Origin: Candidatus Nitrospira inopinata
GTDB lineage: Bacteria; Nitrospirota; Nitrospiria; Nitrospirales; Nitrospiraceae
Reading direction: 5' to 3'
Length of the DNA: 32,000 nucleotides
Assembly (NCBI RefSeq): GCF_001458695.1
Contig: NZ_LN885086.1
Location: 3,000,001 to 3,032,000, forward strand
Shown here: in pieces, positions 1 to 24,020 of the stretch
Layout: the number at the start of each line of letters is the position of its first letter
Position numbering within the stretch: position 1 is the first letter of the stretch
Translations under genes and position numbers: made by a program
Notes under the pieces: generated by a model
Seen by the model: only the letters and a program-made list of their open reading frames with translations
What the model was told of the DNA's origin: nothing
Databases searched by the model: none

Positions 1-374
1 GGATACCAGCCTGAATGTTTGATCCACCGCCCCATGAAATAATTCCGCCGCGGCACGAGATAGGCGTCGTGCGCCGGGGTCCTCGACAGAAGCGCCAGAA
101 TTTCGTCCCGCACTTCGGGCGTACAGATCTCGTCCGTGTCCAGGCTGAAAATCCATTCATGTTGACAGGCCTCAACCGCCCGATTGCGTAAATGCCCGAA
201 CCCTTCAAAGGGAATTTGGACAATCTTGGCCCCGAGTGCCTGGGCAATGCGATCGGTGCCGTCCGTGCTGTGGGAGTCGGCCACCACCACTTCATCGGCC
301 CAGAGGACGCTGTTGACGGCATCGGCAATCCTATCAGCCGAGTTATAGGCAATGATATACGCCGACACCTTCAT
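1..374 (-). CDS. Family-2 (GT-A) glycosyltransferase, 5' part only; the gene continues past the left edge (WaaE/KdtX-like LPS glycosyltransferase)
   Basis: Not in the ORF track because no stop lies in the window. My reverse-complement reading from ATG 374-372 stays open to nt 1: MKVSAYIIAYNSADRIADAVNSVLWADEVVVADSHSTDGTDRIAQALGAKIVQIPFEGFGHLRNRAVEACQHEWIFSLDTDEICTPEVRDEILALL... This is a typical GT2 N-terminus (YN.., DSHSTDGT, DTD). The ATG overlaps the stop of the upstream ORF (ATGA, 371-374). Confidence 0.8.
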   Translation of the reverse strand, partial: MKVSAYIIAYNSADRIADAVNSVLWADEVVVADSHSTDGTDRIAQALGAKIVQIPFEGFGHLRNRAVEACQHEWIFSLDTDEICTPEVRDEILALLSRTPAHDAYLVPRRNYFMGRWIKHSGWY

Positions 375-1660
375 GACGTTTGCTCCTGCACATCGGGAGA
401 ATTATGCGCGGCACGACAGTCGTTGTCATGTCGGTGCGCCGGCGCCAATAGCACCCCCAGAAAGGTGGTCACCAGGTGCCCTTCTGCAAAGGTTCGAAAA
501 TGTGAGCTAAACAGGCTGGTCAGGCACCAGCCACAGAGAATCGCCACCGCCAGCCCTCGAGAGGGACCAGCGGGGGTGGCCACGAGCGCACCTAGCCAGA
601 TCACAAACACCAGAAGGCCCGGCAGTCCGTGCTGAACGACGATCGCCAAGTATTGATTGTGCGGATCGCCGGCGACTTCCGATCGCCAGTCGTTCGGGTC
701 GTACTTGCCGGCAATCTGCTCGGCATAGGCGGCTTTAAATCCTCCCGTGCCAATACCCACGATCAAGTGGCGCGCCGCGATCTCCATGGTATGCAGATAA
801 AACACCTTTCGCACTCCCATCGACGTCAGATCCGCCGACTTCTCCGCATTGTTCCATTCTTGAATCGCTTGCGCCACTCGCTGCTGCATGTGCGGGGAGA
901 CGGCGAACATCACGGCAACAAGGATCGGCAAGATCAATGCTACAGCGATTCTCTGCTTGCGAGTGACGTGCCACAGGCCAAAGATTATGAGCCCCGCGAA
1001 CAGCGCCAGGTAGCCGCTACGGGCGCCGGAGAGAAAAATCACGTTGCCCGCGAAAAGAACAGCCGGCAACAGCAGCCATCGCACCGGCCCCTGCCATCGC
1101 TTGCCCCACACCAACCAGAGGCAGAGCAACGTGGCGATGGTGAAACTCATGGCTTGGGTGACATTGTTGCGCAACAGTGCCCCTGGCGATTTCCAGAGGC
1201 TGATCCCGCTCAACAGGCTGGCAAACGAAGCGGTCACTCCGACCCCTGCCCCAATTAAGAAAGCGTAGAGGAGCCGCCGTTTCCACAATTCACTGTCAAA
1301 GAGGGCAAACAGGATGATGAACCAGAGGACCGTCCGCCATTTCAGCACATCGGTCCACCGTTCCTGCCAGGAAGCCGGTCCATAGGTCATCCCGACGATG
1401 ACGAGACCGAGAAACGCCAGGCCCCAGTACACCGGCGGATAAGACACCACGCCTTTCAACCGTGCCAGAGCCTCGCCACTGGCCAGAAACGCGATATAGG
1501 TCGCGACCAGGCCGATGCTCGCCACCGTGGGAGAATACAAGAGGCCGACCAACGCAAGGATGGCCGATCCCCTTGCGACTTCGATCATACGATTGGCCCC
1601 TGCCCGCTCAGCCAAGGAGTCCAGAGAAATCACCGAAGATACGGCCTCATGCTTGAGCAC
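371..1660 (-). CDS. O-antigen ligase / Wzy_C-family polytopic membrane protein (WaaL-like ligase or polymerase)
   Basis: 429-aa ORF with many hydrophobic segments. It has a late periplasmic-loop motif typical of the family (GDPHNQYLAIVVQHGLPGLLVFVIWLG). The codon at 1660 is GTG and overlaps the GT25 stop by 14 nt; an ATG alternative lies at 1588. Confidence 0.75.
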   Translation of the reverse strand: MLKHEAVSSVISLDSLAERAGANRMIEVARGSAILALVGLLYSPTVASIGLVATYIAFLASGEALARLKGVVSYPPVYWGLAFLGLVIVGMTYGPASWQERWTDVLKWRTVLWFIILFALFDSELWKRRLLYAFLIGAGVGVTASFASLLSGISLWKSPGALLRNNVTQAMSFTIATLLCLWLVWGKRWQGPVRWLLLPAVLFAGNVIFLSGARSGYLALFAGLIIFGLWHVTRKQRIAVALILPILVAVMFAVSPHMQQRVAQAIQEWNNAEKSADLTSMGVRKVFYLHTMEIAARHLIVGIGTGGFKAAYAEQIAGKYDPNDWRSEVAGDPHNQYLAIVVQHGLPGLLVFVIWLGALVATPAGPSRGLAVAILCGWCLTSLFSSHFRTFAEGHLVTTFLGVLLAPAHRHDNDCRAAHNSPDVQEQTS

Positions 1661-2417
1661 GGTAGAAGTATTTCCTCCTCAGCCTCTGAAGCGCAAACTT
1701 GATTCGCTGCACGAACTTGGGAGGAGCCGGCTCCAGTGCGGAGCGAAACGTCCCGTTTTTACTCCCTTGGACCGCCACCGGCTCTTCCAACCAATAGGAC
1801 GCAATGCTCTGTTCGCGATCGATCCGTTCGAACAGGTTGTCGGCGGGCAAGACAATCCCGTGCTGTTCAATCCATGACACACGCAGTTCCGCAGCCCTCC
1901 TGCCCACAATATAGGCTTCGGCCAATCGTCCTCGTGACGATCGATAGAGCCGCCGCCCCGGCACCAGCCGACTGCGCGGTGTGTACAGATTGCCCCCGCT
2001 CCCAATGAACAACACGAAGGGCTCTTCAAAACCAGACGATTCCGCCAAGGCGTCCCGCACACCTTGCACAAAGCCGGGCAAGAGGATCACGTCGTCTTCC
2101 AGAATCAATGCCCGACGCCAGTTCCGCTCGATCAGGAGACGATGGGCCTGAACATGTTTCATCGCACAGGATTGTTGCGCCGGACTCAAACCTGACCCCT
2201 GAAGATATCGCAGTGCCGCTTCATCCTGTAAGTCCGGTACGTCATAGTCATGAATGAATTCGTAGCGAAGCCCCAGGGGGTCCAACTGGCGTTCAATGTG
2301 GCGGCGGCGCTCGACAAAACTCCTGACGTTGATGACGAAGGTCCCGCCAAGGCCAAAATTGTCACCATCTTCGCGGCGTGCATCCGCCTTCATAGCGCTT
2401 GGCCGTTTCAACTCCAA
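1647..2417 (-). CDS. Family-25 glycosyltransferase (LgtB/Lic2B-type LPS glycosyltransferase)
   Basis: 256-aa ORF. Its opening, FVINVRSFVERRRHIERQLDPLGLRYEFIHDYDVPDL, matches the GT25 N-terminal pattern. The codon at 2417 is TTG; an ATG alternative lies at 2393. Confidence 0.7.
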   Translation of the reverse strand: MELKRPSAMKADARREDGDNFGLGGTFVINVRSFVERRRHIERQLDPLGLRYEFIHDYDVPDLQDEAALRYLQGSGLSPAQQSCAMKHVQAHRLLIERNWRRALILEDDVILLPGFVQGVRDALAESSGFEEPFVLFIGSGGNLYTPRSRLVPGRRLYRSSRGRLAEAYIVGRRAAELRVSWIEQHGIVLPADNLFERIDREQSIASYWLEEPVAVQGSKNGTFRSALEPAPPKFVQRIKFALQRLRRKYFYRAQA

Positions 2418-3421
2418 CCAACCACCGCCCCACGGCGAGCCGCCTTGTGTTCAACCATGGTGACCAACCATGCCGCAGCCAGGTACAGCACCGCCACTGC
2501 GCCGATGATCACAAAACACAAGGGCCCGGAGGCTGATTGACACGCCAGAGCCGACAGTCCGCACAGGATCATCAGCCCATATTCCACCGAGGCGGTCTTG
2601 CGATGCCCCCATCCGGCCAGCGCCAACCGCTGATAATAATGCGACCGGTGAGCTTGCCAGACTTTCTCGCCCCGCAGGAGTCGCCTGGCCAAGGTCACCG
2701 ACGCATCGACGATGAAGGGCGAAAACACCAGCAGGGGAACACCCAGCGACCAACTCCCGTTTTTCCACCCGATCAGCCCAAGACCAGCCGCGAGAAAGCC
2801 CAGCGTGGTCGATCCGGCATCGCCCAGAAAAATGCGAGCGGGGTGAAAATTAAACCACAAAAAGGCCCCCGCCGCCGCCGCAATGGACAGACTCACGAGC
2901 ATGAGTGAATGATCGCCGGCTACCCACGCCGCCATCGCCAAAAACCCAAACCCGAAGAGCGTCATTCCGCCGGCTAATCCATCCATCCCATCCATGAAGT
3001 TATAGAGATTCACCATCCACGCCACACCGATGATCGCGAAAGCCGCTCCTGCCCATCCCAGATCGTCGACCAAGAACCATCCAACCAGCCCCCCCGCCGC
3101 GAGCAGATGCACGATCAGCCGACCGATCACCGGCAGCCCGACCAGATCATCAACAAAGGAGACCACGACCAGAACGACGGCGCCGACCCACAGCGGCCAC
3201 CACTCACTCGGTGACACCGACAACGCGCTCACGGCAATACCGGCTGCGACGCCGATTCCCCCGGTTCTCGGCACAGGCTGCCGATGAAGAGAGCGTTCGT
3301 TTGGATGGTCGAGAATTCGGTCGGAGAAACGGCGAAGCAGCCAAACAACAACCATCCACGTGCTAACGAACGAAACAGCCGGGGCTAGATAGACGTAGGA
3401 GGGTAAAGAGTCCATGCTCAT
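2408..3421 (-). CDS. Polyprenyl-phosphate HexNAc-1-phosphate transferase (MraY/WecA/WbpL family), the initiating transferase
   Basis: 337 aa with about 10 TM helices. Family motifs VSFVDDLVGL and NLYNFMDGMDGLAGG are present. ATG at 3421. Confidence 0.85.
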   Translation of the reverse strand: MSMDSLPSYVYLAPAVSFVSTWMVVVWLLRRFSDRILDHPNERSLHRQPVPRTGGIGVAAGIAVSALSVSPSEWWPLWVGAVVLVVVSFVDDLVGLPVIGRLIVHLLAAGGLVGWFLVDDLGWAGAAFAIIGVAWMVNLYNFMDGMDGLAGGMTLFGFGFLAMAAWVAGDHSLMLVSLSIAAAAGAFLWFNFHPARIFLGDAGSTTLGFLAAGLGLIGWKNGSWSLGVPLLVFSPFIVDASVTLARRLLRGEKVWQAHRSHYYQRLALAGWGHRKTASVEYGLMILCGLSALACQSASGPLCFVIIGAVAVLYLAAAWLVTMVEHKAARRGAVVGWS

Positions 3422-3554
3422 AACCGCTGCCTTCCACTTCTCCGGTTCCTCCGGGCCATCGCATTATGGACGATCCGCATCTGACCTTCCATAAACAGGC
3501 CTCGACTGATATCTGCCTGTCAGATAAGCATATGTCATACAAGATGGGTATGAC

Positions 3555-3761
3555 ATGAAACGGACCACGATCTTTGCCAATGAATCGTTGATGGAGTCGC
3601 TACGGGAGATAGCCATCAAGGAACGCACGACTGTGTCGGCAACCATTCGTGCGGCGATTGAGGAATACGTCGGCCGGCGCCAGCCAGCCAGGACCTTGCC
3701 GTCGGCGCCGACGCAGAGATACGTTTCATGCGATCCGTCCGGCGCGGTGAGGTCCGAATAG
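3555..3761 (+). CDS. Ribbon-helix-helix (CopG/VapB-type) antitoxin, probably orphaned with a corrupted C-terminus
   Basis: 68 aa. MKRTTIFANESLMESLREIAIKERTTVSATIRAAIEEYV is a textbook RHH beta-strand plus two helices. The tail (LPSAPTQRYVSCDPSGAVRSE) does not look like the usual toxin-binding tail. A 7-bp inverted repeat GTCATAC-N7-GTATGAC (3534-3554) abuts the ATG. Confidence 0.55.
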   Translation: MKRTTIFANESLMESLREIAIKERTTVSATIRAAIEEYVGRRQPARTLPSAPTQRYVSCDPSGAVRSE

Positions 3762-3958
3762 AAACATTGAGCCAAGCGGATCTGACCAGAACCGTTGCAG
3801 TGATGGAGCAATACCAGGACGCGCGCCTCAGATTTGTGGATGCGTCTCTTGTCGCAGTCGCTGAACGCTTACGAGTTCGGGAAATCCTCACGACCGACCG
3901 TCGCCATTTCTCACTGGTCCGCCCCCGCCATTGCGCCAATTTCGCGCTGAGACCCTAA
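3728..3958 (+). pseudogene. PIN-domain (VapC) toxin, C-terminal half only
   Basis: ETLSQADLTRTVAVMEQYQDARLRFVDASLVAVAERLRVREILTTDRRHFSLVRP matches the C-terminal half of PIN toxins (..y.d..l..vDas.va.AE.l....i.T.DrrhF). The N-terminal half carrying the first acidic residues is absent. Confidence 0.6.
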
Positions 3959-4945
3959 CTTCAGAAACCACGCCACGGTCTCCTCGATCCCCTGATCGAC
4001 CGACCAGGGCGGCGACCATCCCAACTCCCGGCGAATCTTGGAGGCATTGATTTGCAAACTCTCAGTCAACCGTGCAACGGCACCGCGTCGACCGACAAGG
4101 CCCCCTCCCCAACGGAGCAGCGAGACCGGAACCGGCCAGAGTCGGACTGATCTCCCCATCGCACGAGCGATCCGCCGAATCAAGTCCGGCGTGGACAGGT
4201 CCTCGCCGTCGCTCACGAGATAGGTCTGCCCGGCCGCTCGCGGCTCCCGCACACAGGCAATCAAACCATCCACCAGGTTCTCACAGTAAATGAGGCTTCG
4301 CCGATTGCGCACCGACCCGAGTGGTAAGGGAAGCCCTGATCGAATCAGTTTCAAGAGCGAAAGAAAATTCCCTCCGACGCCTGGTCCATACACGAGCGGA
4401 GAACGGATGACGACCGTCTCCAAACCCGTCTCAGACGAAACCGCCGCCAACGCCTGCTCCGCCTCCCATTTTGAGATCCCATAGGAGTCTTGGGGGTTCG
4501 GCATATCCTGTTCCGTAAACGGCAAGCGACTCTCTTCGCCGTTGACCTTGATCGAACTTAAAAAAACAAATCGGCGCACCCCCTGTTCCGCCGCCAGCCT
4601 GGCCAACCGCTCCGTCCAATCCCGATTGATGCGGCGAAACTCAGCGAGCGGATCGGCGGCTTGGTCTCTCATCACATGGACCCTTGCAGCCAGATGAACG
4701 ACTGTCTGCACGCCCTTGAGCGCTTGTCGCGTCTCTTCATCCGATGATTGATCATGCAAAACGACCCATTCATAGTCCGAGCCGTGAGAACCACTTGCCG
4801 AAGAGACCTTGGACCAGTTACGGATGACTGCTCGCACCGCAAGACCTTCTTTCCGGAGCCGTCGGCACAAGGCCGATCCAATGAACCCTGTTGCACCGGT
4901 GACAAGAACGAGGTCGGCCATAAGAGCAGCCCCATCGACGGTCAC
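3911..4945 (-). CDS. NAD-dependent nucleotide-sugar epimerase/dehydratase (extended SDR)
   Basis: VLVTGATGFIGSAL Rossmann motif and catalytic YGISK (YxxxK). The codon at 4945 is GTG (GTGA overlap with the upstream stop). ATG at 4921 (MADLVLVTGATG) is an equally plausible start. Confidence 0.85.
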   Translation of the reverse strand: MTVDGAALMADLVLVTGATGFIGSALCRRLRKEGLAVRAVIRNWSKVSSASGSHGSDYEWVVLHDQSSDEETRQALKGVQTVVHLAARVHVMRDQAADPLAEFRRINRDWTERLARLAAEQGVRRFVFLSSIKVNGEESRLPFTEQDMPNPQDSYGISKWEAEQALAAVSSETGLETVVIRSPLVYGPGVGGNFLSLLKLIRSGLPLPLGSVRNRRSLIYCENLVDGLIACVREPRAAGQTYLVSDGEDLSTPDLIRRIARAMGRSVRLWPVPVSLLRWGGGLVGRRGAVARLTESLQINASKIRRELGWSPPWSVDQGIEETVAWFLKLGSQREIGAMAGADQ

Positions 4946-5691
4946 TTGACAAAAAATTCCATGATCTTGGCCGGATATTTGGAAAAAATCTTTACCCAGC
5001 TCGTCTCGATGCCGTTCTCGCGACAGGCGCGTAACACTTCTTTGTTGAGCACGATCGTATTACGCCATCCGCCGGTACTGATACCGCCGACACGCATGCG
5101 TACCAGCGTCTCGGGAAGACTCCGGTAGGTCAGCGTCTTGTCCCTGAAAATGCGCGCGCAATACTCGAAATCCCCGGCGATGCGATAATCGGTGCGGAAC
5201 AGGCCAAACTTTTCATACACGTGACGCCTGAGAAAAAGAGCTGGATGCGCCGGCATCCAGCCGAACGCGATGCGATCCGGGCTGAAACGAGAAGAACGAT
5301 ACCGGCGGACCGTCCGGGCCGGCTCTTCCGACCTGAAAAATTCGACGTCCCCGCAGAGGGCATCCAACTTCTCTTGTTCCATCGTCGTCGAAACCAGGGA
5401 CAGGACGTCTCCGTGCGCATAGACGTCGTCGGCATTGAGAAATCCGATGATGTCGCCCGAAGCAAGTGCCAAGCCCTTGTTCATGGCATCGTAGACTCCA
5501 CGATCCGGTTCTGAGATGACCCGGGCCACGCGGCCACCGCGCCGCTCAATAACCGTTCGCGTGTCGTCAGTCGACGCCCCATCGACCACGATATGTTCAA
5601 CGTCGCCATGCCGCTGGCCGGCCACCGAATCCAGCGTGTCGCCGAGCGTCCGAGCGGCATTGAAACAAGCGGTGATGACGGAGATTTTCAT
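4942..5691 (-). CDS. Family-2 glycosyltransferase
   Basis: The ORF-track entry 4942..5967 is over-extended. MKISVITACFNAARTLGDTLDSVAGQ...VVDGASTDDT...NADD starts at ATG 5691, 10 nt after the upstream stop at 5702. Confidence 0.85.
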   Translation of the reverse strand: MKISVITACFNAARTLGDTLDSVAGQRHGDVEHIVVDGASTDDTRTVIERRGGRVARVISEPDRGVYDAMNKGLALASGDIIGFLNADDVYAHGDVLSLVSTTMEQEKLDALCGDVEFFRSEEPARTVRRYRSSRFSPDRIAFGWMPAHPALFLRRHVYEKFGLFRTDYRIAGDFEYCARIFRDKTLTYRSLPETLVRMRVGGISTGGWRNTIVLNKEVLRACRENGIETSWVKIFSKYPAKIMEFFVK

Positions 5692-5701
5692 GGCGCAAAG
5701 A

Positions 5702-6982
5702 TTATCTCTTGAGAAACCCCGTTTTCCATCCCACTTCATTGAGCGTACTCGAGTACAGCGCGAGATACCGCTGGGCGACAAGCCGGAGATCAAAGTCCGC
5801 CTCGACCTTTTCACGCGCTCGCCTCGACAATGAACACCGTCGCTCTCTCTTTTCCAAGACCCACTGCATGCCGCGAGCCAAATCAAGCGGCTCAAACGGG
5901 CAAGCCAGGTAACCGTTTTCTTGGTGTTCAATGAGATCCGGCATGCCTCCCACATTGAAGGCGACACAGGGAGTGCCGCAGGCCAGAGCTTCCATGACGG
6001 TGTTTGATAAGTTTTCCTGAGTCGATGGGATCACCGCCACGTCAACGGCCGAGTACAAGAGGGCCAAGGTGACGTCGTCGTTCAACACTCCCATATAATG
6101 AACGGGGACCCCCAAATCAGGCGGAGAGATCGGCCTCGACGCCCCCAGAACAACGACTTGACAGTCACTGTGCTGCTTGTGCGCTTCGCGAAAGATCCTC
6201 ATGGCCTCGATCAAGATGTGAAATCCTTTACGGTGATCGGAGTTGGCATTGAGCGCCCCGAATAAAATGAGGCGTCCTTCAGTCGGCAGGTGGAGAAGAT
6301 GTCTCGCGCTGCGTTTATCAAGCGGCCTGAATATCTTGATATCGAGCCCGTTCGGAATCACCTCGATGCGCTTATCGGAAAGCAGAGAACTCCTTCTTGC
6401 ACACTCAGCCAGCCATCGGCTTGGAGTCACGACCGTCAACGGAACCCCTGCCCATTTCCGCCGCTTCTGTCGCCAGACCCACCGTGACAGATCGGCGTCC
6501 CGAAGCGACCCCAGTGTCGGACAACTTCCGCAGGCTCCGGCATACCGTCCACAGCCGTCGTCATAGTGGCATCCGCCGGTAAAGGCCCACATATCGTGCA
6601 ACGTCCACATGACCGGCACTCCGAATCCTGTCAGCGCTTGGTGGTTCAAGAATCCCCCTGCCACCCAATGCAAATGGACGATGTCAGGATTCAGCCCCCG
6701 CACACGATTCACATAGTTCCCAGGAAGCAGCCCCGGGTAATAGACGCCCTTCCCTCGCCCAGGATACAAGTACATCGGTAGGATATCGAACTGCGGCCTG
6801 ACAACCCCCATCAAGGTTTCGAAACGGCTGCGCGGACCTTCGACGTAGGGATCGTCGCCGCTCTTGGACTGTACGAGCATCCGGGAATCGACGCCCGCTT
6901 CACGCAAGCCACAGTGCAACCGATACGCCGCGCGCGCCGCCCCACCCCGAATATCATAGGTATTGAGCAGTACCGGTCTCAT
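5702..6982 (-). CDS. GT-B fold glycosyltransferase (GT4 / group 1)
   Basis: 426 aa. The C-terminal half has the GT4 pattern (VIPSTQENLSNTVMEALACGTPCVAFNVGGMPDLIE, i.e. the E-x7-E region). ATG at 6982. Confidence 0.85.
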   Translation of the reverse strand: MRPVLLNTYDIRGGAARAAYRLHCGLREAGVDSRMLVQSKSGDDPYVEGPRSRFETLMGVVRPQFDILPMYLYPGRGKGVYYPGLLPGNYVNRVRGLNPDIVHLHWVAGGFLNHQALTGFGVPVMWTLHDMWAFTGGCHYDDGCGRYAGACGSCPTLGSLRDADLSRWVWRQKRRKWAGVPLTVVTPSRWLAECARRSSLLSDKRIEVIPNGLDIKIFRPLDKRSARHLLHLPTEGRLILFGALNANSDHRKGFHILIEAMRIFREAHKQHSDCQVVVLGASRPISPPDLGVPVHYMGVLNDDVTLALLYSAVDVAVIPSTQENLSNTVMEALACGTPCVAFNVGGMPDLIEHQENGYLACPFEPLDLARGMQWVLEKRERRCSLSRRAREKVEADFDLRLVAQRYLALYSSTLNEVGWKTGFLKR

Positions 6983-7024
6983 CGTTCGCCAGCAACCATC
7001 TCTCCTCGTCGCGTCGACAGGGGC

Positions 7025-7942
7025 TCACCGCATCCCGGAACCCAGGCGCCTCCGCGCCCATCGAAACACCGCGCCCAACGGACCGCCCGTCTGTCTGAAG
7101 AGAGCTTTCTTCAGCAAAGCGTAGTCGCCGTCCACGACCTGTGTCACGCGGGGAAACGACACCGGCTCATCCGAAATCGGCTGTCGCGACAAGGTCCATC
7201 GCAACACGCGTGATCCATGCGTGCCGCCGGCAAATCCAATGTTTCGCACAAAAGAGCGGGGAGGAAAGAGTGCCAGCCCTCTCTTCATGAACACGCTCAG
7301 ATACCATCGAATCGCCCAGGAATCGATTTTCCCATCCAACTGCATTTGCAACATCGTGGCGTAGTCGAAATGACCGTCCAAATTGAACCTGTTCCGCAAT
7401 GCGCGGTCATCACGAATTGTTTCCCAGCCCTGAGCGGTTGGATCGAAATGCTTCCAGGCCCTTGCCCAAGTTCCCCAACCCCAGGATGTAATAAATGGCA
7501 GGAATAGCGCTTCTCTTCTCTCCGAAAATTCAGGAATTGGAACGATATGTCCCCCTATCTGCATGACAAGGGTCTCGTGTTCATAGAAAGTCAACGCGTC
7601 ATTCATATAGGACAAAAACCGTGGCGACGTGACCAAATCATCTTCCACGACAATCACGCGACCGTACTGCTCACAAAGACCGGTTACTCCGTCGATAATA
7701 GAGCGGGCCAAGCCGAAATTCGTATCCCGCTCGATCAGCGTGAGGCACTTGAAGCCGGTGATCGATCGGACATATGAGCGGACCTCGTCGACCGACTGCC
7801 GTGCCGCCTCATTTCGGGGAGCATCCGAGAAGACGTACAACGATGTCTCACCGGCAAGCGCATTGGCCGCCAAGGCCTCGACGGTCTGCCTGGTGTGATC
7901 GGGACGGTTATAGACGAATAAGGCGACGGGAGCGAGCGACAC
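7025..7942 (-). CDS. GT-A fold glycosyltransferase (GT2 / GnT-I-like, EDD motif)
   Basis: LFVYNRPDHTRQTVEAL, VVEDDLVTSP, SWGWGTW and VRNIGFAGGTHGS. The maximal ORF reaches GTG 8017 but would overlap the upstream gene by 76 nt. GTG 7942 (TAGTG overlap, AGAAAGA 6 nt upstream) is the more likely start. Confidence 0.7.
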   Translation of the reverse strand: MSLAPVALFVYNRPDHTRQTVEALAANALAGETSLYVFSDAPRNEAARQSVDEVRSYVRSITGFKCLTLIERDTNFGLARSIIDGVTGLCEQYGRVIVVEDDLVTSPRFLSYMNDALTFYEHETLVMQIGGHIVPIPEFSERREALFLPFITSWGWGTWARAWKHFDPTAQGWETIRDDRALRNRFNLDGHFDYATMLQMQLDGKIDSWAIRWYLSVFMKRGLALFPPRSFVRNIGFAGGTHGSRVLRWTLSRQPISDEPVSFPRVTQVVDGDYALLKKALFRQTGGPLGAVFRWARRRLGSGMR

Positions 7943-8856
7943 TACCAATCTTTCTGCGGCGACGAGATCGCTTTGAACCAAAAAAGAAGATAGGGCCAAA
8001 GCCAAGCGAGGAACCACAAGGGGCCTTTATGCCGATAGGTAAAGATGCCCCACGCCCTGACCGGAAACCCCTTGGGACCGATCAATTGTTTCCAACGCAC
8101 AGAGAGAGGCGCACGGCCGTCCTCTCCAAAAGCCGACTGCGTATTGCCCAAGCATGTCCCATAATAGCCTGGAGCAATGTAGACCCGGCACCCGTTCTTG
8201 GTCGCCCGCAATCCATAGTCGAGGTCTCCCATACTGTGCACAAAGGCGGCATCAAGGTTTCCGATCCGCTCGACAACGGATTTCGATATCAGCACGCAGT
8301 TCCCGTTCATCGTATCGCAGGCGAGCGGTTTCTCAGGGTGAGGCGGCGTCTTTTTCCACGAAATCAACCCCGTCGCCTTTTGATAGCGGCTCCATCCGCC
8401 ATAGGTGAACAACCCCGTGTAGGGATCGCGGGTGCTGCCGACGATGATGTTGGCCTCACACCCATCGGCGGAAACCGCCCGATGGGTCTCCAACATCCTG
8501 GCCAGTGCATCGTGATCCAGCATGGTGTCGTCGTTGAGCCATAAATAGAAGTCGTAGTCCTTGCGGATAGCTTCGGCGAAGGCCCAGCGCACCGCGCCAC
8601 ACCAAAATAGACTTCCATCTCCTGTGAGAATGGTGGCATGGGGCATGATCGTGCGGACCGCTTGCGCCGTTCCGTCATGTGATCCGTCATCCACGAGAAA
8701 CAGATCGACCGACGCCCCTGCAACAGATTGAGCATTCAAGGAACGTACGCTTTGGGTAGTGTAGGCGACTCTGTTGTGACATGCCATAAGCGCCGCAATG
8801 CGCGAAACCGCTGGGCTTCGCCCACTATGTCCATTGCTGCAGACTATCGTGTCCAT
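7942..8856 (-). CDS. Family-2 glycosyltransferase
   Basis: IAALMACHNRVAYTTQSVRSL...DLFLVDDGSHDGT...WLNDD. ATG at 8856. Confidence 0.8.
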   Translation of the reverse strand: MDTIVCSNGHSGRSPAVSRIAALMACHNRVAYTTQSVRSLNAQSVAGASVDLFLVDDGSHDGTAQAVRTIMPHATILTGDGSLFWCGAVRWAFAEAIRKDYDFYLWLNDDTMLDHDALARMLETHRAVSADGCEANIIVGSTRDPYTGLFTYGGWSRYQKATGLISWKKTPPHPEKPLACDTMNGNCVLISKSVVERIGNLDAAFVHSMGDLDYGLRATKNGCRVYIAPGYYGTCLGNTQSAFGEDGRAPLSVRWKQLIGPKGFPVRAWGIFTYRHKGPLWFLAWLWPYLLFWFKAISSPQKDW

Positions 8857-9022: not shown

Positions 9023-9832
9023 CTATCGTCCCTGTACAAAGGTCGCATTGCTGCCTTCGACGGCGACACAACGCATACCGGATCGCACCAATAGCTTGAT
9101 GTGCTCGTTGATTCGCTCAGGAGCCTTGTCATCCAGAGGGGTATGGGCCTCGTCGAATTCAACGAGTAAGAGCCTGGGCAAAGACTCTGACACCGCCAGG
9201 TCCTCGATGACCCCGTACTCCGCGCCTTCGATATCGATCTTCAACAGATCGATCGCGCGATCTCCCTGCTGACGCATGATGCTCGAAAGACGAACGCAGG
9301 GCGCGGTAAAGTATCGATCGGTTTTCTGTAAATTGACGACGGAGCAGGACACATGGGCCGGGTTCCGAGGCAAATAGAATCTCATCTCGGCGTCTTGATT
9401 GGCCAACCCGACCGGGAGAAAGGACAGCCGGCCCAGATGCGCCTCGGTGATGGAGTAGAAATCGCTCCGGCTGTTGTTCACGGGAAATCGTTCCCCGGAC
9501 CGTACGGCCCGCTCCAGATCCCGGAAGTGCTGCAGGGCCCTCGGTGTCGGATCGATAATCCGCACACGACAGCCGAAATATTCGACCAACTCACATTCAA
9601 AACTGATATCTTCTCCGGCGCCTGCGCAATAACAGAGGCTGTCGACGGTGAGGCTGTGATCCTTTGGAATGATCCACCCCCCATACACCGTTCCGAGCCG
9701 CAACAGCTCCCCGGGAGGTAGGATTCTGGCATGGTCCACATATGGCAGCAATGGCGATACCCGCCCTCCTCGGCCTCCGGCCAGACCGCGCAACACCCCT
9801 ACGGCTTGTTGAAGCATCTGTTTGATAATCAT
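9023..9832 (-). CDS. FkbM-family SAM-dependent methyltransferase
   Basis: The ORF-track entry 9023..10024 is over-extended. ATG 9832 (MIIKQMLQ...) has AAGAGGA 9 nt upstream. The hallmark IDLLKIDIEGAEYGVI is present near the C-terminus. Confidence 0.8.
   Translation of the reverse strand: MIIKQMLQQAVGVLRGLAGGRGGRVSPLLPYVDHARILPPGELLRLGTVYGGWIIPKDHSLTVDSLCYCAGAGEDISFECELVEYFGCRVRIIDPTPRALQHFRDLERAVRSGERFPVNNSRSDFYSITEAHLGRLSFLPVGLANQDAEMRFYLPRNPAHVSCSVVNLQKTDRYFTAPCVRLSSIMRQQGDRAIDLLKIDIEGAEYGVIEDLAVSESLPRLLLVEFDEAHTPLDDKAPERINEHIKLLVRSGMRCVAVEGSNATFVQGR
9036..9067. repeat. 32-nt block, copy L (inside the intact fkbM 3' end)
   Basis: acaaaggtcgcattgcTgccttcgacggcgac is identical to 15594-15625 except for one T/C. 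Confidence 0.9.
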
Positions 9833-9863
9833 TGTCACTGATCCTCTTTGCCCGGCTATCCCA

Positions 9864-10142
9864 TCAACCGACGCAGAATACGCGAGCGCTTCGGCGGGAC
9901 AAATGCATTGTAAAAGCAGCGGGCAATCCTCTCGTCGATATGCCCCCCGGAGAGCATGATCGCGGCATCCACCCTTCATCGCAGGAAGCGTGTTCCCGCC
10001 TGAGATCGGCGCCGCAATGCACACCGGAACGGTCGAGTCCGATATTTACTACCAAGGTCTTCGTGGGATAAATACAGTGCATGTTATGGGCATGGTGGGC
10101 ATAACAGAACCGGATCGTCCAGGAGTGGTGGCATCCTGCTGT
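9864..10142 (-). pseudogene. 3' fragment of a second GT-A glycosyltransferase, paralogous to 7025..7942
   Basis: Reading frame bounded by TAA 10143-10145. SWTIRFCYAHHAHNMHCIYPTKTLVVNIGLDRSGVHCG (about 10011-10124) aligns almost without gaps to SWAIRWYLSVFMKRGLALFPPRSFVRNIGFAGGTHGS of the intact gene (SW.IR, P, V.NIG, G.H conserved). About 220 N-terminal codons are missing. Confidence 0.5.
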
Positions 10143-10170
10143 TTACAGACATCGCCCCCAGCCGACTCGA

Positions 10171-11091
10171 CTACCGTTTTTTGAACTGAACAACCAGACA
10201 ATCTTTTTCCCGATAGGGTACTTCAATGAGCCGCAAGAAACACATCAGGAGGTACCTGACGGGCGCCGCATCCAGCCAAGTCCGTTGCCAATCCAATTGA
10301 GATGCTGTCGGATAAAGAACCGCTTTAAGATTGAGGCGAAACCAGGATTCTGGCGTGCGGCTCCAGGTGTTGACCATCTCGAACCCGTGCTGTTTTGCCA
10401 ATGCTTCCAAAGCGCCGGCCGTGTAGTGAAACAGGTGAAAGGGCGCAAACCATCCACTGATCCAGTTGTCTTTGAATACCTTCCGCCACACGCTGGCCGC
10501 GTTTGGCACCGCCAGATACAGCATCCCGCCAGCTTTCAAAACCCTCGTGAGTTCGCACAAAAACCCGTGGGGGTCAGGAAGGTGTTCAAAGACTTGCATG
10601 AGATAAACAACGTCGAATTCTCCATCGGGAAAAGGAATTCTCGACAAGCTTTCAACTTGCCGTACATCGTATCCATGACTTCGGCATGCCGCCACTACAT
10701 ATGCGGCAATTTCTGCTCCTGATATGGCTATTCCCCGATGATGAAAATCTCTCAAGTAGCCGACATTGCCACAACCGTAATCCAATACACGTGCTCCCGC
10801 TGGGACCTGCACAAAATCACGCGGATCCACATCGCCACTGAACCAGTGAAACAGTTTCCGCAGCTTTGGATAGCGCGACCCTGTTTTTCTGGACAGGTCG
10901 ACTTTCTGGTCTTTGGAGTACACACTGTAGTAGGCGATCAGTTGCTCATCCGTAGGCAACGGCACCATGGAAAGAATCCCGCATCGCTCGCACTCAGCCA
11001 CTTGCCATACTCCTGGCAGGCCCTTTCTTCTGTCACATAGGTCATACCTTGTAGCCCCATCCGAGAATTTATCACCGCAAACTCGGCACAT
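10171..11091 (-). CDS. Class I SAM-dependent methyltransferase with an N-terminal Cys4 zinc ribbon
   Basis: MCRVCGDKF...CERCG ribbon, motif I VLDYGCGNVGYL, and post-I/II LMQVFEHLPDP...LKAGGMLYL. ATG at 11091. Confidence 0.8.
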   Translation of the reverse strand: MCRVCGDKFSDGATRYDLCDRRKGLPGVWQVAECERCGILSMVPLPTDEQLIAYYSVYSKDQKVDLSRKTGSRYPKLRKLFHWFSGDVDPRDFVQVPAGARVLDYGCGNVGYLRDFHHRGIAISGAEIAAYVVAACRSHGYDVRQVESLSRIPFPDGEFDVVYLMQVFEHLPDPHGFLCELTRVLKAGGMLYLAVPNAASVWRKVFKDNWISGWFAPFHLFHYTAGALEALAKQHGFEMVNTWSRTPESWFRLNLKAVLYPTASQLDWQRTWLDAAPVRYLLMCFLRLIEVPYREKDCLVVQFKKR

Positions 11092-11316: not shown

Positions 11317-12186
11317 TTATTCCTTTGCCAGCACAATCAAGACGTGATCGGGGGACCATGAAGGCATCCCGTTGTATTTTTTCATGGTTACGATTCGTTT
11401 CATACAGCTCAAGACTTTCCTGTAAAAAGGAAATTGGTACGCGACAGATGCGTAGGTGGGAATCCACCGCTCGATTTTGAAATTTGACAACCCTTCAAAA
11501 AACTTTCGGGATGGGAACGCTATGTGCTCAGGATAGCCCACATACCACCAACGCGTTTGTGTACTCCGAGAGCTTTGGCAGTCAATATCACCGGTGAGAA
11601 GCACGAGCCGGCCTCCAGGCTTAAGCCGGCGATAACATTCATCAAAGAACCTTCGCATCTCATACAGATGTTCTATCACGTCAAAAGCCGTGATAATGTC
11701 AAACTCCTTGGCTCCCAACTGCTCAAATGAGGAAAACCACGTATGCCCTTTTAACTCAAGACGCTCTTTTGTTGTTATTGAATAGTCAATCCCGGTCGTT
11801 ATGCATCCTCTCTCTCTGGAAAAATCAAGAAGATTCCCCTCCCCACACCCGACATCCAGATGCTGCCTGCCGTTCTGGCACAGGCGGGATAGCTCGGCAA
11901 TAATTTCATGCGGCTTATGGCATTCGAACACCGCCGTAGACCAACGACTGGTACTGTCTCCCTCGGCATAGAGTTTTCGCGCAAGCTCCTCAGGCAGCAC
12001 ATTTTGCACAAACGCCGACCCACAGCCGTTGCATTTCCAAAGTTCCGGCACCCTTTCTACCCGTACCTCCACTGAAGAAAACAAAACCGGTTGACCATAG
12101 GAAATAACCCCGATTTTCACTATGGTCGAGGCACCGCACAGCGGACAGACGGCGTATCGGAGCTCATTCGGAAAACTGATTGGCAC
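11317..12186 (-). CDS. Class I SAM-dependent methyltransferase with an N-terminal Cys4 zinc ribbon
   Basis: CPLCGAS...CNGCGS ribbon, motif I HLDVGCGEGNLL, then AFDVIEHLYE...LKPGGRLVL. GTG start at 12186, 11 nt after the upstream stop. Confidence 0.8.
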   Translation of the reverse strand: MPISFPNELRYAVCPLCGASTIVKIGVISYGQPVLFSSVEVRVERVPELWKCNGCGSAFVQNVLPEELARKLYAEGDSTSRWSTAVFECHKPHEIIAELSRLCQNGRQHLDVGCGEGNLLDFSRERGCITTGIDYSITTKERLELKGHTWFSSFEQLGAKEFDIITAFDVIEHLYEMRRFFDECYRRLKPGGRLVLLTGDIDCQSSRSTQTRWWYVGYPEHIAFPSRKFFEGLSNFKIERWIPTYASVAYQFPFYRKVLSCMKRIVTMKKYNGMPSWSPDHVLIVLAKE

Positions 12187-12197
12187 GTGTTCGCAGA

Positions 12198-13679
12198 TCA
12201 GTGCTTTGTGGCGAAAATTATGACGCGAGGGGACGGAAACGACTCGTGCATTTCAATCTTAGGAAAGTGCCGAGCGAGAGCTGCCTTAAAATTATCCAAA
12301 TTGTACCAACCAAAATCTTCTGTGTACCAAGACCGAACATGCGCATCTTCTTTGGGAACGAATTCCACAATGAGATACTTTTCTGAATATGAATCAAAAA
12401 CTTTCGCAATGTGAGCGAAAGACATTCTAGTGGTCTTAAACACAAGATGATGAACAAGCGCCAAGCACATTACTAGTTCTGAGCGTAGTCTTTCCACGAC
12501 CGATGGGAAGGGAATCTCTTGGAAACCAATCGCTTGAGCAGGAGCAACGGCATTGACATAAAGCGGCAGCGCGCCCGTTTTAAGACGTTTAGAATCCAAA
12601 TACATGTCATCCAGAGCTCGCTCATCGATATCGACACCAACAACTCGCGAACCCTGCAATGCAGCAACCTGACAGTACAAGCCTCGATTACACCCCAAGT
12701 CAAGAACTGACTTTGGCTTGATAGCTTGCAGAAGACGGCTGATGAGCATGTGTTTGGGGGTTGCTTCCCGAATACGGGTCAAGACATCCGCGCTCCCATC
12801 ATAAACCGGCAATTCATTTTTTCCGGAATAATAGTCTGACCATTGGGTGATAGCTGGACGGAGATCCAATGATTCAATCTTGTCAAGCATGTCGGTAACA
12901 TTTGAGACGTCATCATTTTTTTCCAAGGCGCTCGAAATTCCAATTGCTACCCCTCTAGCTTTCTTCAGCATATTTTTTGCGTTCGGGGAAATCCTGACAG
13001 ACAAGTATTCCAAGAACCCACGACCCATCTTTTTCACGTGTTCGCGCACCTGCAAAGTACGAATGGGCCCTTTCGTTAACGTTTGAACCATCAGCGGATC
13101 CGGATAGGACAAAATTTCGCGCAGCAAACTCCGCGCCGTTGTTGGGAAACCTGACCGCATGATCAACAAGGGATTGAGGCAATAATGTGAAAACTGCTCT
13201 TTCGCGCGCCACTTGTTACCGGGCAGGGCTTTAATTATTGACGTAAAATCAACGAATCGCGGTGTAATTCCATCAAAAAGAACGTTCCAGAGGTGCGCAT
13301 CGTGCGTACATAGACCGCCTTTTAGCAACTCAATGTTCAATTTCAGTATGGTTACTGCCGCGTCTCTATACATGCTTGGTGTCCATTCGAACGGATAGGT
13401 GACAACCGGTAACACTGGATGCTCCAGCACGAGCTCATGCCCCTTGAGTTTTTTATCGGACACTCGAGTATCAATCAGAATCCCGTCATTCATAAGTTTG
13501 GCGATTATCGGATTCTCCAGCAGTGATCCATAAAAATCAGTCCATCCAGGCTTGATCGCACGGATAATTTTATCGCCAGCTCTATACAAAACAGCATGCT
13601 GATCTATTCCCATACCTATGGGGATTAGACCTTCCGTTTCTGAAGAGATCGTCGTCAGAGATGCTTGACCGCTTTGCAC
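12198..13679 (-). CDS. Two-domain protein: N-terminal protein-kinase-like-fold domain plus C-terminal class I SAM methyltransferase (NoeA-like layout)
   Basis: C-terminal domain: VLDLGCNRGLYCQVAALQGSRVVGVDID. N-terminal domain: IIRAIKPG, CTHDAHLWNV (H-D-x4-N) and PRFVDFTS. GTG 13679 has AGAGGG just upstream; an ATG alternative lies at 13613. Confidence 0.75.
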   Translation of the reverse strand: MQSGQASLTTISSETEGLIPIGMGIDQHAVLYRAGDKIIRAIKPGWTDFYGSLLENPIIAKLMNDGILIDTRVSDKKLKGHELVLEHPVLPVVTYPFEWTPSMYRDAAVTILKLNIELLKGGLCTHDAHLWNVLFDGITPRFVDFTSIIKALPGNKWRAKEQFSHYCLNPLLIMRSGFPTTARSLLREILSYPDPLMVQTLTKGPIRTLQVREHVKKMGRGFLEYLSVRISPNAKNMLKKARGVAIGISSALEKNDDVSNVTDMLDKIESLDLRPAITQWSDYYSGKNELPVYDGSADVLTRIREATPKHMLISRLLQAIKPKSVLDLGCNRGLYCQVAALQGSRVVGVDIDERALDDMYLDSKRLKTGALPLYVNAVAPAQAIGFQEIPFPSVVERLRSELVMCLALVHHLVFKTTRMSFAHIAKVFDSYSEKYLIVEFVPKEDAHVRSWYTEDFGWYNLDNFKAALARHFPKIEMHESFPSPRVIIFATKH

Positions 13680-14062: not shown

Positions 14063-15514
14063 TCAACTCTTCGCGTGTCTCGCTCTCATGCCAGTTAAGA
14101 CCAAACTCTCGTTCAACAACTCTGCGCAGAACATCCGACAAGTTAGCAGATAAATGCCGCTGCCGACAGCGCTCGCCACTATCAGTTTGATAATCGGCAG
14201 CGTCTGCACCGTGTCGGCAACAAAGTACAGCACTATCGCCATTGGAATAACGGTCGCAAAATTTATGGCCAGATCGCGTAATTGGTCGAGGCTCCCATAG
14301 GATAACAGGATCTTCATATGATATGAGTTTAAATAATAAGTAGTGACTGAGACCGCGACTTGAGCCCACGCAATAGCCATGACTCCATGATAACTAGCCC
14401 CAAGCGTCATAAGAATTGCTATCCCTTTCTTCAGGACCTCGATCCTCAATCTTAAATCAGCATGTCCTTGCGCTCTCAGGAGATTGAGGTTAAGTATGCT
14501 CAGTGGCCACAAGATCCCACTCAACCCCAACACTTGTAACATGGGCACACATGCAAGCCATTGTTCACCGAACAAGGCATGCACCAGCGGCTCGGCAAGA
14601 ACAATGATGCTGACCGTGATCGGCATATTGATAAGCATGACAACCGCCTGCGCCCGTCGCAGTCCTCTAACAAGGCGGGTTTTATCCTCGGCTACCGACG
14701 CGAATGAGGAATACATCACCCGCTGAATAACTCCCGCCATCATCGTTACTGGGACAAGCTGTGTATTTCTTGCTCTGCTGAATAATCCTACATCGCGCAC
14801 GGAGTAGAGTTTGCCGATTAGTATCGAGTACAAATTGGTATAAAAGACATCCAACAAGGTCGATGCCATTTCGTAGCCGCCGAAGCGAAACAATGACTGC
14901 AATGATGCAGCGCTGAAATTCCAAGTTGGACGCCACGGATGCCATGCCCACAGCAAGACAACGGTGATGATGCTCGAAGCGACGGTATGACCGACAAGGC
15001 TCCACACGCCATAGCCCTGAGCGGCCATATATAGGGCTAATGAGCCAGCCACAACGGAACTGACCCCGCCTACTTTGGCCAAGATTTTGAAATTCATTTC
15101 TTTCGTTAGCAATGCAGTATGGATAGATCCAACGGCTCCTACAGCCAGAGAAAACGCCATGACAGATGATAAGTCGACGAGTACAGGCAGATCGAAGAAT
15201 GAAGCGATCCACGGCGATGCTGCATACAACACCACTCCTGAAAACCCTCCCATACCAACATTGAAAAAGAATACGGTGGACTCATCCACATGGGATGTAC
15301 CCTGTCGTTGGATCAATGCAGAACTCAACCCTCCATCAATAAGAACCACCGCCACTCCGGTGAACAAGGTCAGCAAAGCAACAATACCAAAATCATCTGG
15401 AGCCAATAGCCGAGCCAGCACCATGGATATGCCGAACTGCACGCCTTGGCGTATAAATACATCGACGGTACTCCATTTAGCCGCAGTCGCCGTTTTATCA
15501 ACTAACGATGTCAT
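14063..15514 (-). CDS. wzx: Wzx-type O-unit/polysaccharide flippase (MOP superfamily)
   Basis: 483 aa with about 12-14 TM segments. The N-terminus, KWSTVDVFIRQGVQFGISMVLARLLAPDDFGIVALL, is typical of the Polysacc_synt family. ATG at 15514. Confidence 0.85.
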   Translation of the reverse strand: MTSLVDKTATAAKWSTVDVFIRQGVQFGISMVLARLLAPDDFGIVALLTLFTGVAVVLIDGGLSSALIQRQGTSHVDESTVFFFNVGMGGFSGVVLYAASPWIASFFDLPVLVDLSSVMAFSLAVGAVGSIHTALLTKEMNFKILAKVGGVSSVVAGSLALYMAAQGYGVWSLVGHTVASSIITVVLLWAWHPWRPTWNFSAASLQSLFRFGGYEMASTLLDVFYTNLYSILIGKLYSVRDVGLFSRARNTQLVPVTMMAGVIQRVMYSSFASVAEDKTRLVRGLRRAQAVVMLINMPITVSIIVLAEPLVHALFGEQWLACVPMLQVLGLSGILWPLSILNLNLLRAQGHADLRLRIEVLKKGIAILMTLGASYHGVMAIAWAQVAVSVTTYYLNSYHMKILLSYGSLDQLRDLAINFATVIPMAIVLYFVADTVQTLPIIKLIVASAVGSGIYLLTCRMFCAELLNESLVLTGMRARHAKS

Positions 15515-15845: not shown

Positions 15846-15969
15846 TCATTCGAACCGTTCCGCCCGATCGAACGTGACACCCTGCCGATCCTTTGAGGAC
15901 AGTATCGGCGCTCCCTCCAACGGCCATGTGATCCCGACCGTCGGATCGTTCCAGATCAGGCACCGCTCG
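15846..15969 (-). pseudogene. 3'-terminal 124 nt of a second rfbC (dTDP-4-dehydrorhamnose 3,5-epimerase) allele
   Basis: Ungapped alignment to 16799-16922 gives 115/124 identical by my count. It encodes ERCLIWNDPTVGITWPLEGAPILSSKDRQGVTFDRAERFE*. Nothing upstream of it resembles rfbC. Confidence 0.85.
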
Positions 15970-16124: not shown

Positions 16125-16346
16125 ATGAAGACCACCATCGAAATCGACCAGCGCTTGTTGAGACAGGCCCAGAAGACTTTGGGGACAGAGACTATTAAAG
16201 GAACGGTGGAAGCGAGCCTGCGCAGCGTCATTCAGCGGGGTCAGTTACAGAAATTGGCTGATGCGCTTGGCACCATTCCCCTTGATCTCACACCTGAGAG
16301 GCTTCGCTCTCATCGTCATAAACGGACCCCTCATGTATCTGGTTGA
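16125..16346 (+). CDS. vapB: Type II antitoxin (VapB-type)
   Basis: 73 aa. MKTTIEIDQRLLRQAQKTLGTETIKGTVEASLRSVI is typical of the short antitoxins paired with PIN toxins. It overlaps the toxin start by 14 nt. Confidence 0.75.
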   Translation: MKTTIEIDQRLLRQAQKTLGTETIKGTVEASLRSVIQRGQLQKLADALGTIPLDLTPERLRSHRHKRTPHVSG

Positions 16347-20420: not shown

Positions 20421-22111
<1,691 letters not shown>

Positions 22112-23913: not shown

Positions 23914-24020
23914 TGACTTGCGGCTCCGCGGGCGCGGCTTCGCCCTCTCACTTACAGTTCCCTCCTTCGGCCACTGCAAGCGCCCCCCTGCTCCTCGTCC
24001 GGCGACACACTCGGCGTCCC

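Follow-up and report, generated by a model that had tools for sequence, protein, structure and literature searches.

The question raised by this locus is what a protein that joins a kinase-like domain to a methyltransferase does among genes for a surface glycan. The protein, of 493 amino acids (aa), is encoded in a lipopolysaccharide (LPS)-type glycan locus of Candidatus Nitrospira inopinata, within the 32,000 nucleotides analyzed here (positions 3,000,001 to 3,032,000 of contig NZ_LN885086.1; hereafter the window). Methyl-phosphate capping by WbdD is the textbook case of how an O-antigen chain is ended, measured and licensed for export. The original prediction for this gene was a WbdD-like capping enzyme with its domains in reversed order, and the open reading frame (ORF) on which that proposal was built is present on the minus strand with a GTG start. 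The analysis gives a probability of roughly 0.55 that the enzyme works like WbdD of Escherichia coli O9a, placing methyl phosphate on a surface glycan. A WbdD-like modifying or capping role is the best reading because most relatives in its clade lie directly after wzm-wzt, the position occupied by wbdD.

The N-terminal domain (N-domain) was analyzed with profiles, since scans of the query with single models were silent: Pfam and NCBIfam gave no match within aa 1-300, and Pfam APH (PF01636) did not match the query even at E <= 10. Full-length homologs numbered 353, and alignments were made of 46 full-length homologs and of 42 N-domains. The profile of the 42 N-domains ranked the WbdD kinase domain first in the PDB (E 4.6e-5); the next matches, YopO kinase (0.05) and MAP3K8 (0.05), were weaker by a factor of about 1000, and hhalign of the N-domain profile against the WbdD kinase gave 94.9% probability. 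WbdD was also the top PDB match of the query in phmmer, where a second, weak stretch paired CTHDAHLWNVLFDG..FVDFTSI with WHDDVRPWNVMVDA..LIDFGSI of the WbdD kinase. Pfam APH matches were seen in 22 of the 42 N-domains, all below threshold (best 2e-5), and a few N-domains matched RIO1, Pkinase or ABC1.

The AlphaFold2 model of the whole protein had a predicted local distance difference test score (pLDDT) of 91.5 and a predicted template-modelling score (pTM) of 0.88. Foldseek searches with this model were dominated by methyltransferases and were uninformative on the N-domain, which was therefore modelled alone (pLDDT 92.2). The top 50 PDB matches of the N-domain model were all protein kinases (DYRK2, TYK2, JAK1, ROCK1, Fyn and others), with E values of 1.7e-5 to 2.8e-4 and query-normalised template-modelling (TM) scores of about 0.4-0.5. 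A comparable outcome of structural matching was reported for the WbdD kinase domain by the authors of that work (PMC3482155). WbdD was absent from the top 50, so that the specific link to WbdD rests on the sequence profiles and not on structural ranking. No enzyme of the APH type (aminoglycoside/choline kinases, PF01636) was among the top 50 either, and the window domain differs from these in having no strand-3 Lys, whereas it resembles them in its small-molecule kinase fold, Dx4N loop and metal-binding Asp. The models indicate that the N-terminal ~200 aa form a protein-kinase-like fold, as had been proposed, and the profiles indicate that the WbdD kinase is its closest solved relative by sequence.

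Residue conservation was scored in 114 full-length homologs (31-96% identity), to which the following counts refer. Four kinase landmarks had been proposed, and half of them stood. The catalytic-loop pair D127-x4-N132 is kept (D127 in 111/114 homologs, N132 in 114/114), as is D144 (114/114). On the other hand, the proposed strand-3 lysine, K43, is Lys in just 14/114 homologs, the invariant basic residue of the predicted strand 37-42 being R40 (114/114), and E55 of the proposed acidic helix is acidic in just 48/114. No conserved helix-C glutamate was found in the 114 homologs, no position of aa 44-66 being kept acidic. H126 is His in just 26/114; E98, W99 and A107 are also invariant in the N-domain and D26 nearly so. 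The catalytic loop (DxxPWN) and the DFGS-type motif align with WbdD residue by residue, D127, W131, N132 and D144 pairing with D351, W355, N356 and D369, which in WbdD are substrate and Mg ligands plus a stacking Trp (PMC3482155).

The missing canonical strand-3 Lys and helix-C Glu, together with the failure of any Pfam kinase model to match the query itself, could mean that the kinase-like domain is dead, or is a substrate-binding pseudokinase lid, and that the protein is a simple methyltransferase. This is very improbable given that conservation in the 114 homologs stands at 97-100% for the catalytic Asp, the metal-binding Asn, the DFG-type Asp and also Arg40, residues of a kind that pseudokinases typically lose. 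A published analysis of the family likewise sees a conserved active site (PMC9758233).

The C-terminal part was described in the original prediction as a class I S-adenosylmethionine (SAM) methyltransferase. The motifs quoted lie where they were placed (VLDLGCNRG at aa 324-333, VVGVDID at aa 346-352), and Pfam gave weak class I methyltransferase matches at aa 312-426. When the family was aligned by hhalign with the methyltransferase of E. coli HS WbdD (RefSeq NC_009800, L005:27966-30092), the probability was 94.7% in local and 97% in global mode. D350 aligns with the SAM-binding D82 of WbdD, H410/H411 with H132/H133, and R485, in the family motif SxPxPR, with R203 (SPVPR). D350, H410, H411, R485, R397 and (K/R)309 are each present in 114/114 homologs. 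The WbdD mutants H132A, H133A, R203A and Y16F lose phosphate methylation and retain phosphorylation (PMC3482155). Taken as aligned, the methyltransferase keeps counterparts of the residues that define the phosphate-methylating activity of WbdD.

It might still be that each domain targets an atom of its own, with the kinase phosphorylating one site and the methyltransferase O-methylating a sugar hydroxyl, as in serotype O8 WbdD, with no methyl phosphate made. Three more O-methyltransferases lie within 3.5 kb, and methylated sugars are to be expected because the cluster is so rich in these enzymes; by score, generic class I enzymes are also as close to the methyltransferase domain as WbdD is, and the HH pair is not confined to methyltransferases that act on phosphate (PMC3482155). 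The N-domain family, however, comprises 4515 representative clusters (E <= 1e-3, clusters at 50% identity), nearly all of them proteins of 430-490 aa with the N-domain at the N-terminus, and a methyltransferase is found in 94% of homologs (PMC9758233), so that fusion is almost obligatory. In addition, the invariant Arg at the WbdD R203 position forms, with the invariant R397 and K309, a cationic pocket needless for a neutral hydroxyl. Action on different atoms is therefore quite unlikely.

Comparison by sequence places the window protein in the Lani_1194/NoeA family, a "novel kinase" family described in silico in 2022 (Sci Rep) with no function assigned (PMC9758233). In that description Lani_1194 (Legionella anisa KTC72970.1) and NoeA (Sinorhizobium) have a kinase-like domain of ~180 aa followed by a class I methyltransferase, ~470 aa in total. 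Arg38 takes the place of PKA K72, there is no ion-pair Glu, and the equivalents of PKA D166, N171 and D184 are conserved. About 2000 homologs were counted, 94% of them with the methyltransferase, an EptA-like NoeB/Lani_1195 gene was found in 38% of the neighbourhoods, and a role in decorating secreted factors or the envelope was proposed (PMC9758233). The window protein has the same architecture, with R40 at the PKA K72 position, no ion-pair Glu, and D127, N132 and D144 as the three conserved equivalents. The original prediction had noted that proteins of this layout are annotated as NoeA-like; in agreement with this, tblastn against plasmids detected Sinorhizobium/Ensifer noeA at 1e-23 over aa 94-478 of the query. 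NoeA keeps 27/30 compared conserved positions, including every family-invariant one. The assignment of a kinase-like fold, including the Arg-for-Lys substitution, is hence already published (PMC9758233). Among the family representatives, P0249 (805 aa, metagenomic) is a natural GT2-kinase-methyltransferase fusion.

NoeA and Lani_1194 differ from the window protein in belonging to a separate clade (~28% identity) and in being linked to a small upstream ORF and the EptA-like NoeB/Lani_1195 instead of glycan exporters; noeA lies in a nodL-noeA-noeB operon. No NoeB/Lani_1195-like gene was found in the window, this gene being a frequent and not a defining feature of the family. NoeB-like genes were seen only with the distant clade (L031, L034, L037, NoeA and Singulisphaera), directly downstream of the fusion homolog in three loci. 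NoeA-clade genes are followed by an EptA/LTA-synthase-like gene of the alkaline phosphatase fold in Ensifer pT173b (L048:7523-10814) and in a Singulisphaera plasmid (L049:7980-10963), and the rhizobial ones are preceded by an ORF of roughly 70 aa. This setting suggests a different phospho-transfer pathway for the NoeA clade.

The characterised enzyme nearest to the window protein is WbdD of E. coli O9a / Klebsiella O3 (PDB 4AZS, 4AZW, 4UW0), a bifunctional kinase/methyltransferase chain terminator that is among the top solved relatives of each domain. The differences from it are clear. The window protein has the order kinase-methyltransferase and WbdD the order methyltransferase-kinase, confirming the reversal that had been predicted. 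Also as predicted, there is no coiled-coil tail, the last methyltransferase strand being the end of the protein (493 vs 708 aa), and with it the C-terminal ruler and membrane-binding helix of WbdD are missing. An Arg stands at the strand-3 Lys position, and only short motifs are similar (31% over 48 aa, 24% over 126 aa). No transmembrane or hydrophobic segment was seen in a scan of the whole 493-aa sequence, and since both a transmembrane segment and a coiled coil are lacking, the protein is most likely cytoplasmic and soluble.

WbdD is not the only characterised kinase and methyltransferase enzyme of O-antigen synthesis, as had been assumed: ORF6 of Klebsiella pneumoniae O7 is a second, a methyltransferase-kinase terminator with in vitro-proven formation of terminal methyl phosphate (PMC11231755). 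Compared by its description, ORF6 resembles the window protein in combining a methyltransferase with a cryptic kinase-like domain missed by standard annotation. It differs in its methyltransferase-kinase order, in a kinase resembling the amicoumacin kinase AmiN, and in belonging to a large protein with coiled coil and GT2 polymerase that depends on an ATP-binding cassette (ABC) transporter. The Lcin_0519 family (Legionella and others), again by description, consists of predicted LPS-modifying kinase/methyltransferases with Wzt/Wzm neighbours; it has the WbdD-like domain order and a coiled coil and is, according to its authors, a separate, remotely related family (PMC9758233). It was to Lcin_0519 alone, and not to Lani_1194/NoeA, that WbdD or Wzm/Wzt were tied in that study (PMC9758233).

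The exporter context of the fusion gene was determined in 40 loci from many phyla, one genome per species being scanned, and the ORFs of each locus were searched with E. coli Wzm and Wzt, the window Wzx, a small Wzx hidden Markov model and NoeB. The wzm-wzt genes adjoin the fusion gene in 16/40 loci; in most of these wzt overlaps or abuts its start, and the order is that of E. coli HS, wzm-wzt-wbdD. Six loci, the window included, have a MOP (Wzx-type) flippase at the wzm-wzt position. These comprise three Nitrospira-type loci (the window, L046 and L051) and three from Verrucomicrobia, and no ABC transporter was found within 10 kb of them. The flippase ORF ends at about the start of the fusion gene in the three Verrucomicrobia loci, and in one of them, L047 (the L007 contig), the called-gene table gives a 4-bp overlap. 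In a neighbour-joining tree the exporter-linked clade stands apart from the NoeA/NoeB clade and is mostly ABC-linked, with Wzx in a nested Nitrospira and Verrucomicrobia subclade.

No pairwise similarity was detected between the Nitrospira and the Verrucomicrobia flippases, and the pairing with a MOP flippase is therefore recurrent and not accidental. A single co-evolving flippase lineage in both groups was considered and ruled out on the same result.

The relatives most similar to the query alternate between exporters. The proteins at 79% (P0002, L050) and 77% identity (the L006 ortholog) go with wzt and with wzm-wzt carrying Wzt_C (PF14524, 6e-9), respectively; those at 72% (P0003, L051) and 69% (P0005, L046) go with Wzx; and those at 65% (P0009, L052) and 55% (P0018, L053) go with wzm-wzt and wzt, respectively, each with Wzt_C. 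Further away, P0029 (44%, L047) is found with a MOP flippase and P0061 (35%) with a Wzt that has Wzt_C.

This alternation bears on a per-unit decoration by the same chemistry, in which each repeat unit or oligosaccharide would receive its group while still in the cytoplasm and then be handled by Wzx and a Wzy-type polymerase or ligase. Such a role would fit the fusion gene following a MOP/Wzx flippase in the window, L046, L051 and the three Verrucomicrobia loci (with apparent overlap), in flippase lineages so dissimilar that the pairing must have arisen or persisted independently. It would also fit the Wzy_C-family gene of the window and the lack there of a Wzt to read a cap. We consider a side decoration unlikely, however, because the exporter of the nearest relatives (55-79% identity) is now Wzx, now wzm-wzt with Wzt_C, and the same accessory genes are kept, which argues for one shared role. 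Terminal caps are the rule in ABC-type clusters with cap-binding modules, and neither Wzz nor a clear Wzy distinct from a ligase was found in the window.

The adjacency of Wzx could also mislead, if a Wzm/Wzt encoded beyond the window exported the glycan and Wzx served another. The view taken here spans 32 kb, and the sister Nitrospira has wzm-wzt at the same locus. Against this, the wzx-fusion order recurs in all six loci named above with no ABC transporter within 10 kb, and tblastn found no wzm/wzt remnant in the 32-kb window. An exporter elsewhere is thus highly improbable.

The exchange of exporters is best seen in the sister Nitrospira locus L006, which shares with the window the rmlA/rmlC chromosomal site and many cassette genes. 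Identities between the two are 97% for RmlA, 94% for RmlC and for the GT-A-like protein, 86% for the FkbM-type methyltransferase, 77% for the fusion protein and 63% for the 289-aa methyltransferase. Where the window has wzx, L006 has wzm-wzt (L006:7928-10035), and in the sister genomes one or the other type of exporter precedes the same pair, kinase-methyltransferase and 289-aa methyltransferase. Conserved in Nitrospira loci as the partner downstream of the fusion gene, the 289-aa enzyme is found also in L046, L050 and L051. Comparison of the loci indicates that the exporter module has been exchanged within a mosaic but related cassette. We tentatively suggest, as a possibility open to considerable doubt, a hybrid pathway in which a cytoplasmic methyl-phosphate cap is followed by export through a MOP/Wzx flippase instead of Wzm/Wzt with a cap-binding module, sister Nitrospira exchanging one type of exporter for the other next to a single conserved cassette of terminator and methyltransferase.

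From the fold, the conserved residues, the homology to both WbdD domains and the synteny, which are observed, we infer the use of ATP and SAM, a methyl-phosphate product, its terminal position and a role in export. In the proposed WbdD-like mechanism the kinase-like domain would bind Mg-ATP, its metal ligands being N132 and D144 and the usual strand-3 Lys being replaced by Arg40. D127 would act as catalytic base in phosphorylation of a sugar hydroxyl of an undecaprenyl-diphosphate-linked glycan, presumably the product of the neighbouring glycosyltransferases. The methyltransferase, binding SAM through GCNRG and D350, would then methylate that phosphate, the phosphomonoester being held by H410, H411 and R485, plus R397 and K309. 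The methyl phosphodiester would stop extension and flag the glycan as finished. The Wzt ABC exporter encoded alongside would, in most relatives, recognise this mark through its carbohydrate-binding module; in the window the MOP/Wzx flippase that stands in place of wzm-wzt would flip the modified glycan, and the Wzy_C-family protein would pass it on.

Several points weigh against a WbdD-like mechanism. A strand-3 Lys replaced by Arg and a missing helix-C Glu are atypical of active kinases. In the methyltransferase, the match of R485 with R203 falls in a low-confidence part of the global hhalign alignment, and the equivalent of WbdD Y16 differs between methods, phmmer pairing Y284 with Y16 and global hhalign pairing W280 with W25 (Y283 is kept in 113/114 homologs and Y284 in 93/114). 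By raw score 3g5l is a better match of this domain than WbdD, and the HH pair is found also in NodS or RebM (PMC3482155). As to the locus, the window has neither a Wzt or cap-binding module to read a cap nor, as noted, any remnant of wzm/wzt. The family is functionally non-uniform, since the NoeA-type sister clade is linked to an EptA-like NoeB and not to exporters, and its members are known from sequence plus NoeA genetics; the NoeA phenotype is a genetic host range alone (PMC9758233, citing Ardourel 1995). The capping proposal of the original prediction is thus supported in part, by homology in both domains, by the active-site residues and by the wzm-wzt synteny of the relatives, whereas domain order, the coiled coil and the exporter of the window are unlike WbdD.

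What appears to be new here is the WbdD-type reading, together with the wzm-wzt linkage and the exporter swap, and literature searches on methyl phosphate in Wzx pathways gave nothing relevant. To our knowledge, just two methyl-phosphate terminators have been characterised, both of methyltransferase-kinase order and with coiled coils and ABC exporters. A survey by Mann, Kimber and Whitfield (Glycobiology, 2019) is said to cover terminators near Wzt cap-binding modules and may already list this family. The reading offers a testable WbdD-type function for a very large uncharacterised family of many phyla, including the rhizobial host-range protein NoeA, and suggests that chain modification or termination without a coiled-coil ruler is possible. 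Should the hybrid pathway be real, the Lani_1194/NoeA family (about 4500 clusters at 50% identity) would have its first concrete function, and use of a cap-based "finished" signal, or at the very least of a WbdD-type terminator, would extend beyond ABC exporters. The same cassette with Wzm/Wzt and a cap-binding module, or with Wzx, would be a natural experiment on exporter specificity, and the swap may offer a way to engineer glycan export. In the window itself, an anonymous "SAM-dependent methyltransferase" of a Nitrospira-like LPS locus would be explained.

Table 1. Coordinates of the fusion gene, its domains and codons, and the surrounding genes in the window
Feature	Position	Strand	Basis or remark
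Kinase-like/methyltransferase fusion gene	12198..13679	(-)	GTG start, 493 aa, stop codon 12198-12200; complete ORF
Protein-kinase-like domain, aa 15-205	13065..13637	(-)	Profile, hhalign, Foldseek, residue conservation
Key kinase codon R40	13560-13562	(-)	
Key kinase codon D127	13299-13301	(-)	
Key kinase codon N132	13284-13286	(-)	
Key kinase codon D144	13248-13250	(-)	
Helical linker, aa 206-275	12855..13064	(-)	pLDDT 65-83, three helices in the AlphaFold2 model
Class I SAM methyltransferase domain, aa 276-493	12201..12854	(-)	Pfam matches, hhalign vs WbdD
Methyltransferase motif I (GCNRG) and D350		(-)	
Methyltransferase codons H410/H411	12447-12452	(-)	
Methyltransferase codon R485	12225-12227	(-)	
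MOP-family (Wzx-type) flippase	14063..15514	(-)	Directly upstream of the fusion gene; Pfam Polysacc_synt_3, 1.2e-86
289-aa methyltransferase	11317..12186	(-)	Cys-rich N-terminus (putative zinc ribbon); Pfam Methyltransf_23, 1e-21
Class I methyltransferase	10171-11091	(-)	Within methyltransferase pair 9023..11091
FkbM-type methyltransferase	9023-10024	(-)	Within methyltransferase pair 9023..11091
GT2	7942-8856	(-)	Glycan assembly block 371..8856
GT-A-like gene	7025-8017	(-)	Glycan assembly block 371..8856
GT4	5702-6982	(-)	Glycan assembly block 371..8856
GT2	4942-5967	(-)	Glycan assembly block 371..8856
Epimerase	3911-4945	(-)	Glycan assembly block 371..8856
WecA-like initiating transferase	2408-3421	(-)	Glycan assembly block 371..8856
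GT25	1647-2417	(-)	Glycan assembly block 371..8856
Wzy_C-family ligase or polymerase	371-1660	(-)	Glycan assembly block 371..8856
rmlC 3'-end remnant, 124 nt	15846..15969	(.)	Direct repeat, 93% identical to 16799-16922

The features of the locus are collected in Table 1. The fusion gene has a GAGGG Shine-Dalgarno-like motif 6 nt upstream of its GTG start, and the linker between its domains varies in length among homologs, with large gaps there in their alignment. The upstream neighbour is a Wzx-type flippase, as had been predicted, and it matched NCBIfam models of a MOP flippase (2e-75) and an O-glycosylation flippase (3e-68). GC content is 47-53% at 10-17 kb and 56-63% in the flanking DNA, in agreement with the earlier view of a foreign island as far as low GC is concerned. 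On the 3' side of the fusion gene lie four or five glycosyltransferases and three methyltransferases. The locus, on the minus strand, also holds lpxK, three heptosyltransferase genes, a MarR-like gene and a NusG paralog, along with DegT, APS kinase, Gmd and epimerase genes, rmlA and rmlC.

These genes also bear on the nature of the glycan. Protein O-glycosylation is an alternative to an O-antigen, as an O-glycosylation flippase model also fits the flippase and the Wzy_C domain occurs in PglL-type transferases too; LPS is favoured because lpxK and heptosyltransferase genes adjoin. A heavily methylated glycan is predicted from the presence of at least five methyltransferases in the locus, including the FkbM-type. 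A Cys-rich N-terminus (CPxC...CxxC) is common to three class I methyltransferases, the 289-aa enzyme, that at 10171-11091 and one at 27693-28739. The APS kinase gene (21461-22111) lies among the sugar-nucleotide genes, adjoining Gmd and DegT, and a fragment of such a gene is found 5' of the flippase in L051. This hints at a supply of 3'-phosphoadenosine 5'-phosphosulfate for sulfation of the same glycan.

Two further genes are kept in L046. The NusG-domain paralog (RfaH/LoaP-like, 23305-24024) immediately precedes the long run of minus-strand genes and is likely an operon-specific antiterminator of the glycan cluster. The gene at 28732-30525, adjoining lpxK, encodes a protein of 597 aa in which a GT9 heptosyltransferase is joined to a HAD phosphatase domain (GmhB-like).

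The rmlC remnant lies 830 bp beyond the intact rmlC, at the border of rmlA/rmlC with the low-GC flippase/kinase-methyltransferase cassette. Between the two rmlC 3' copies are an antitoxin-like ORF (16125-16346) and a PIN-domain toxin gene (16261-16746), both on the plus strand, and the repeat with the enclosed gene pair resembles the insertion of a toxin-antitoxin unit or a scar left by recombination. At 3555-3958, between the epimerase and WecA-like genes, two short ORFs of 68 aa (called RHH_1 in the identical contig L001) and 76 aa overlap on the plus strand, opposite to that of the cluster, and are probably a second toxin-antitoxin-like pair within the glycan locus.

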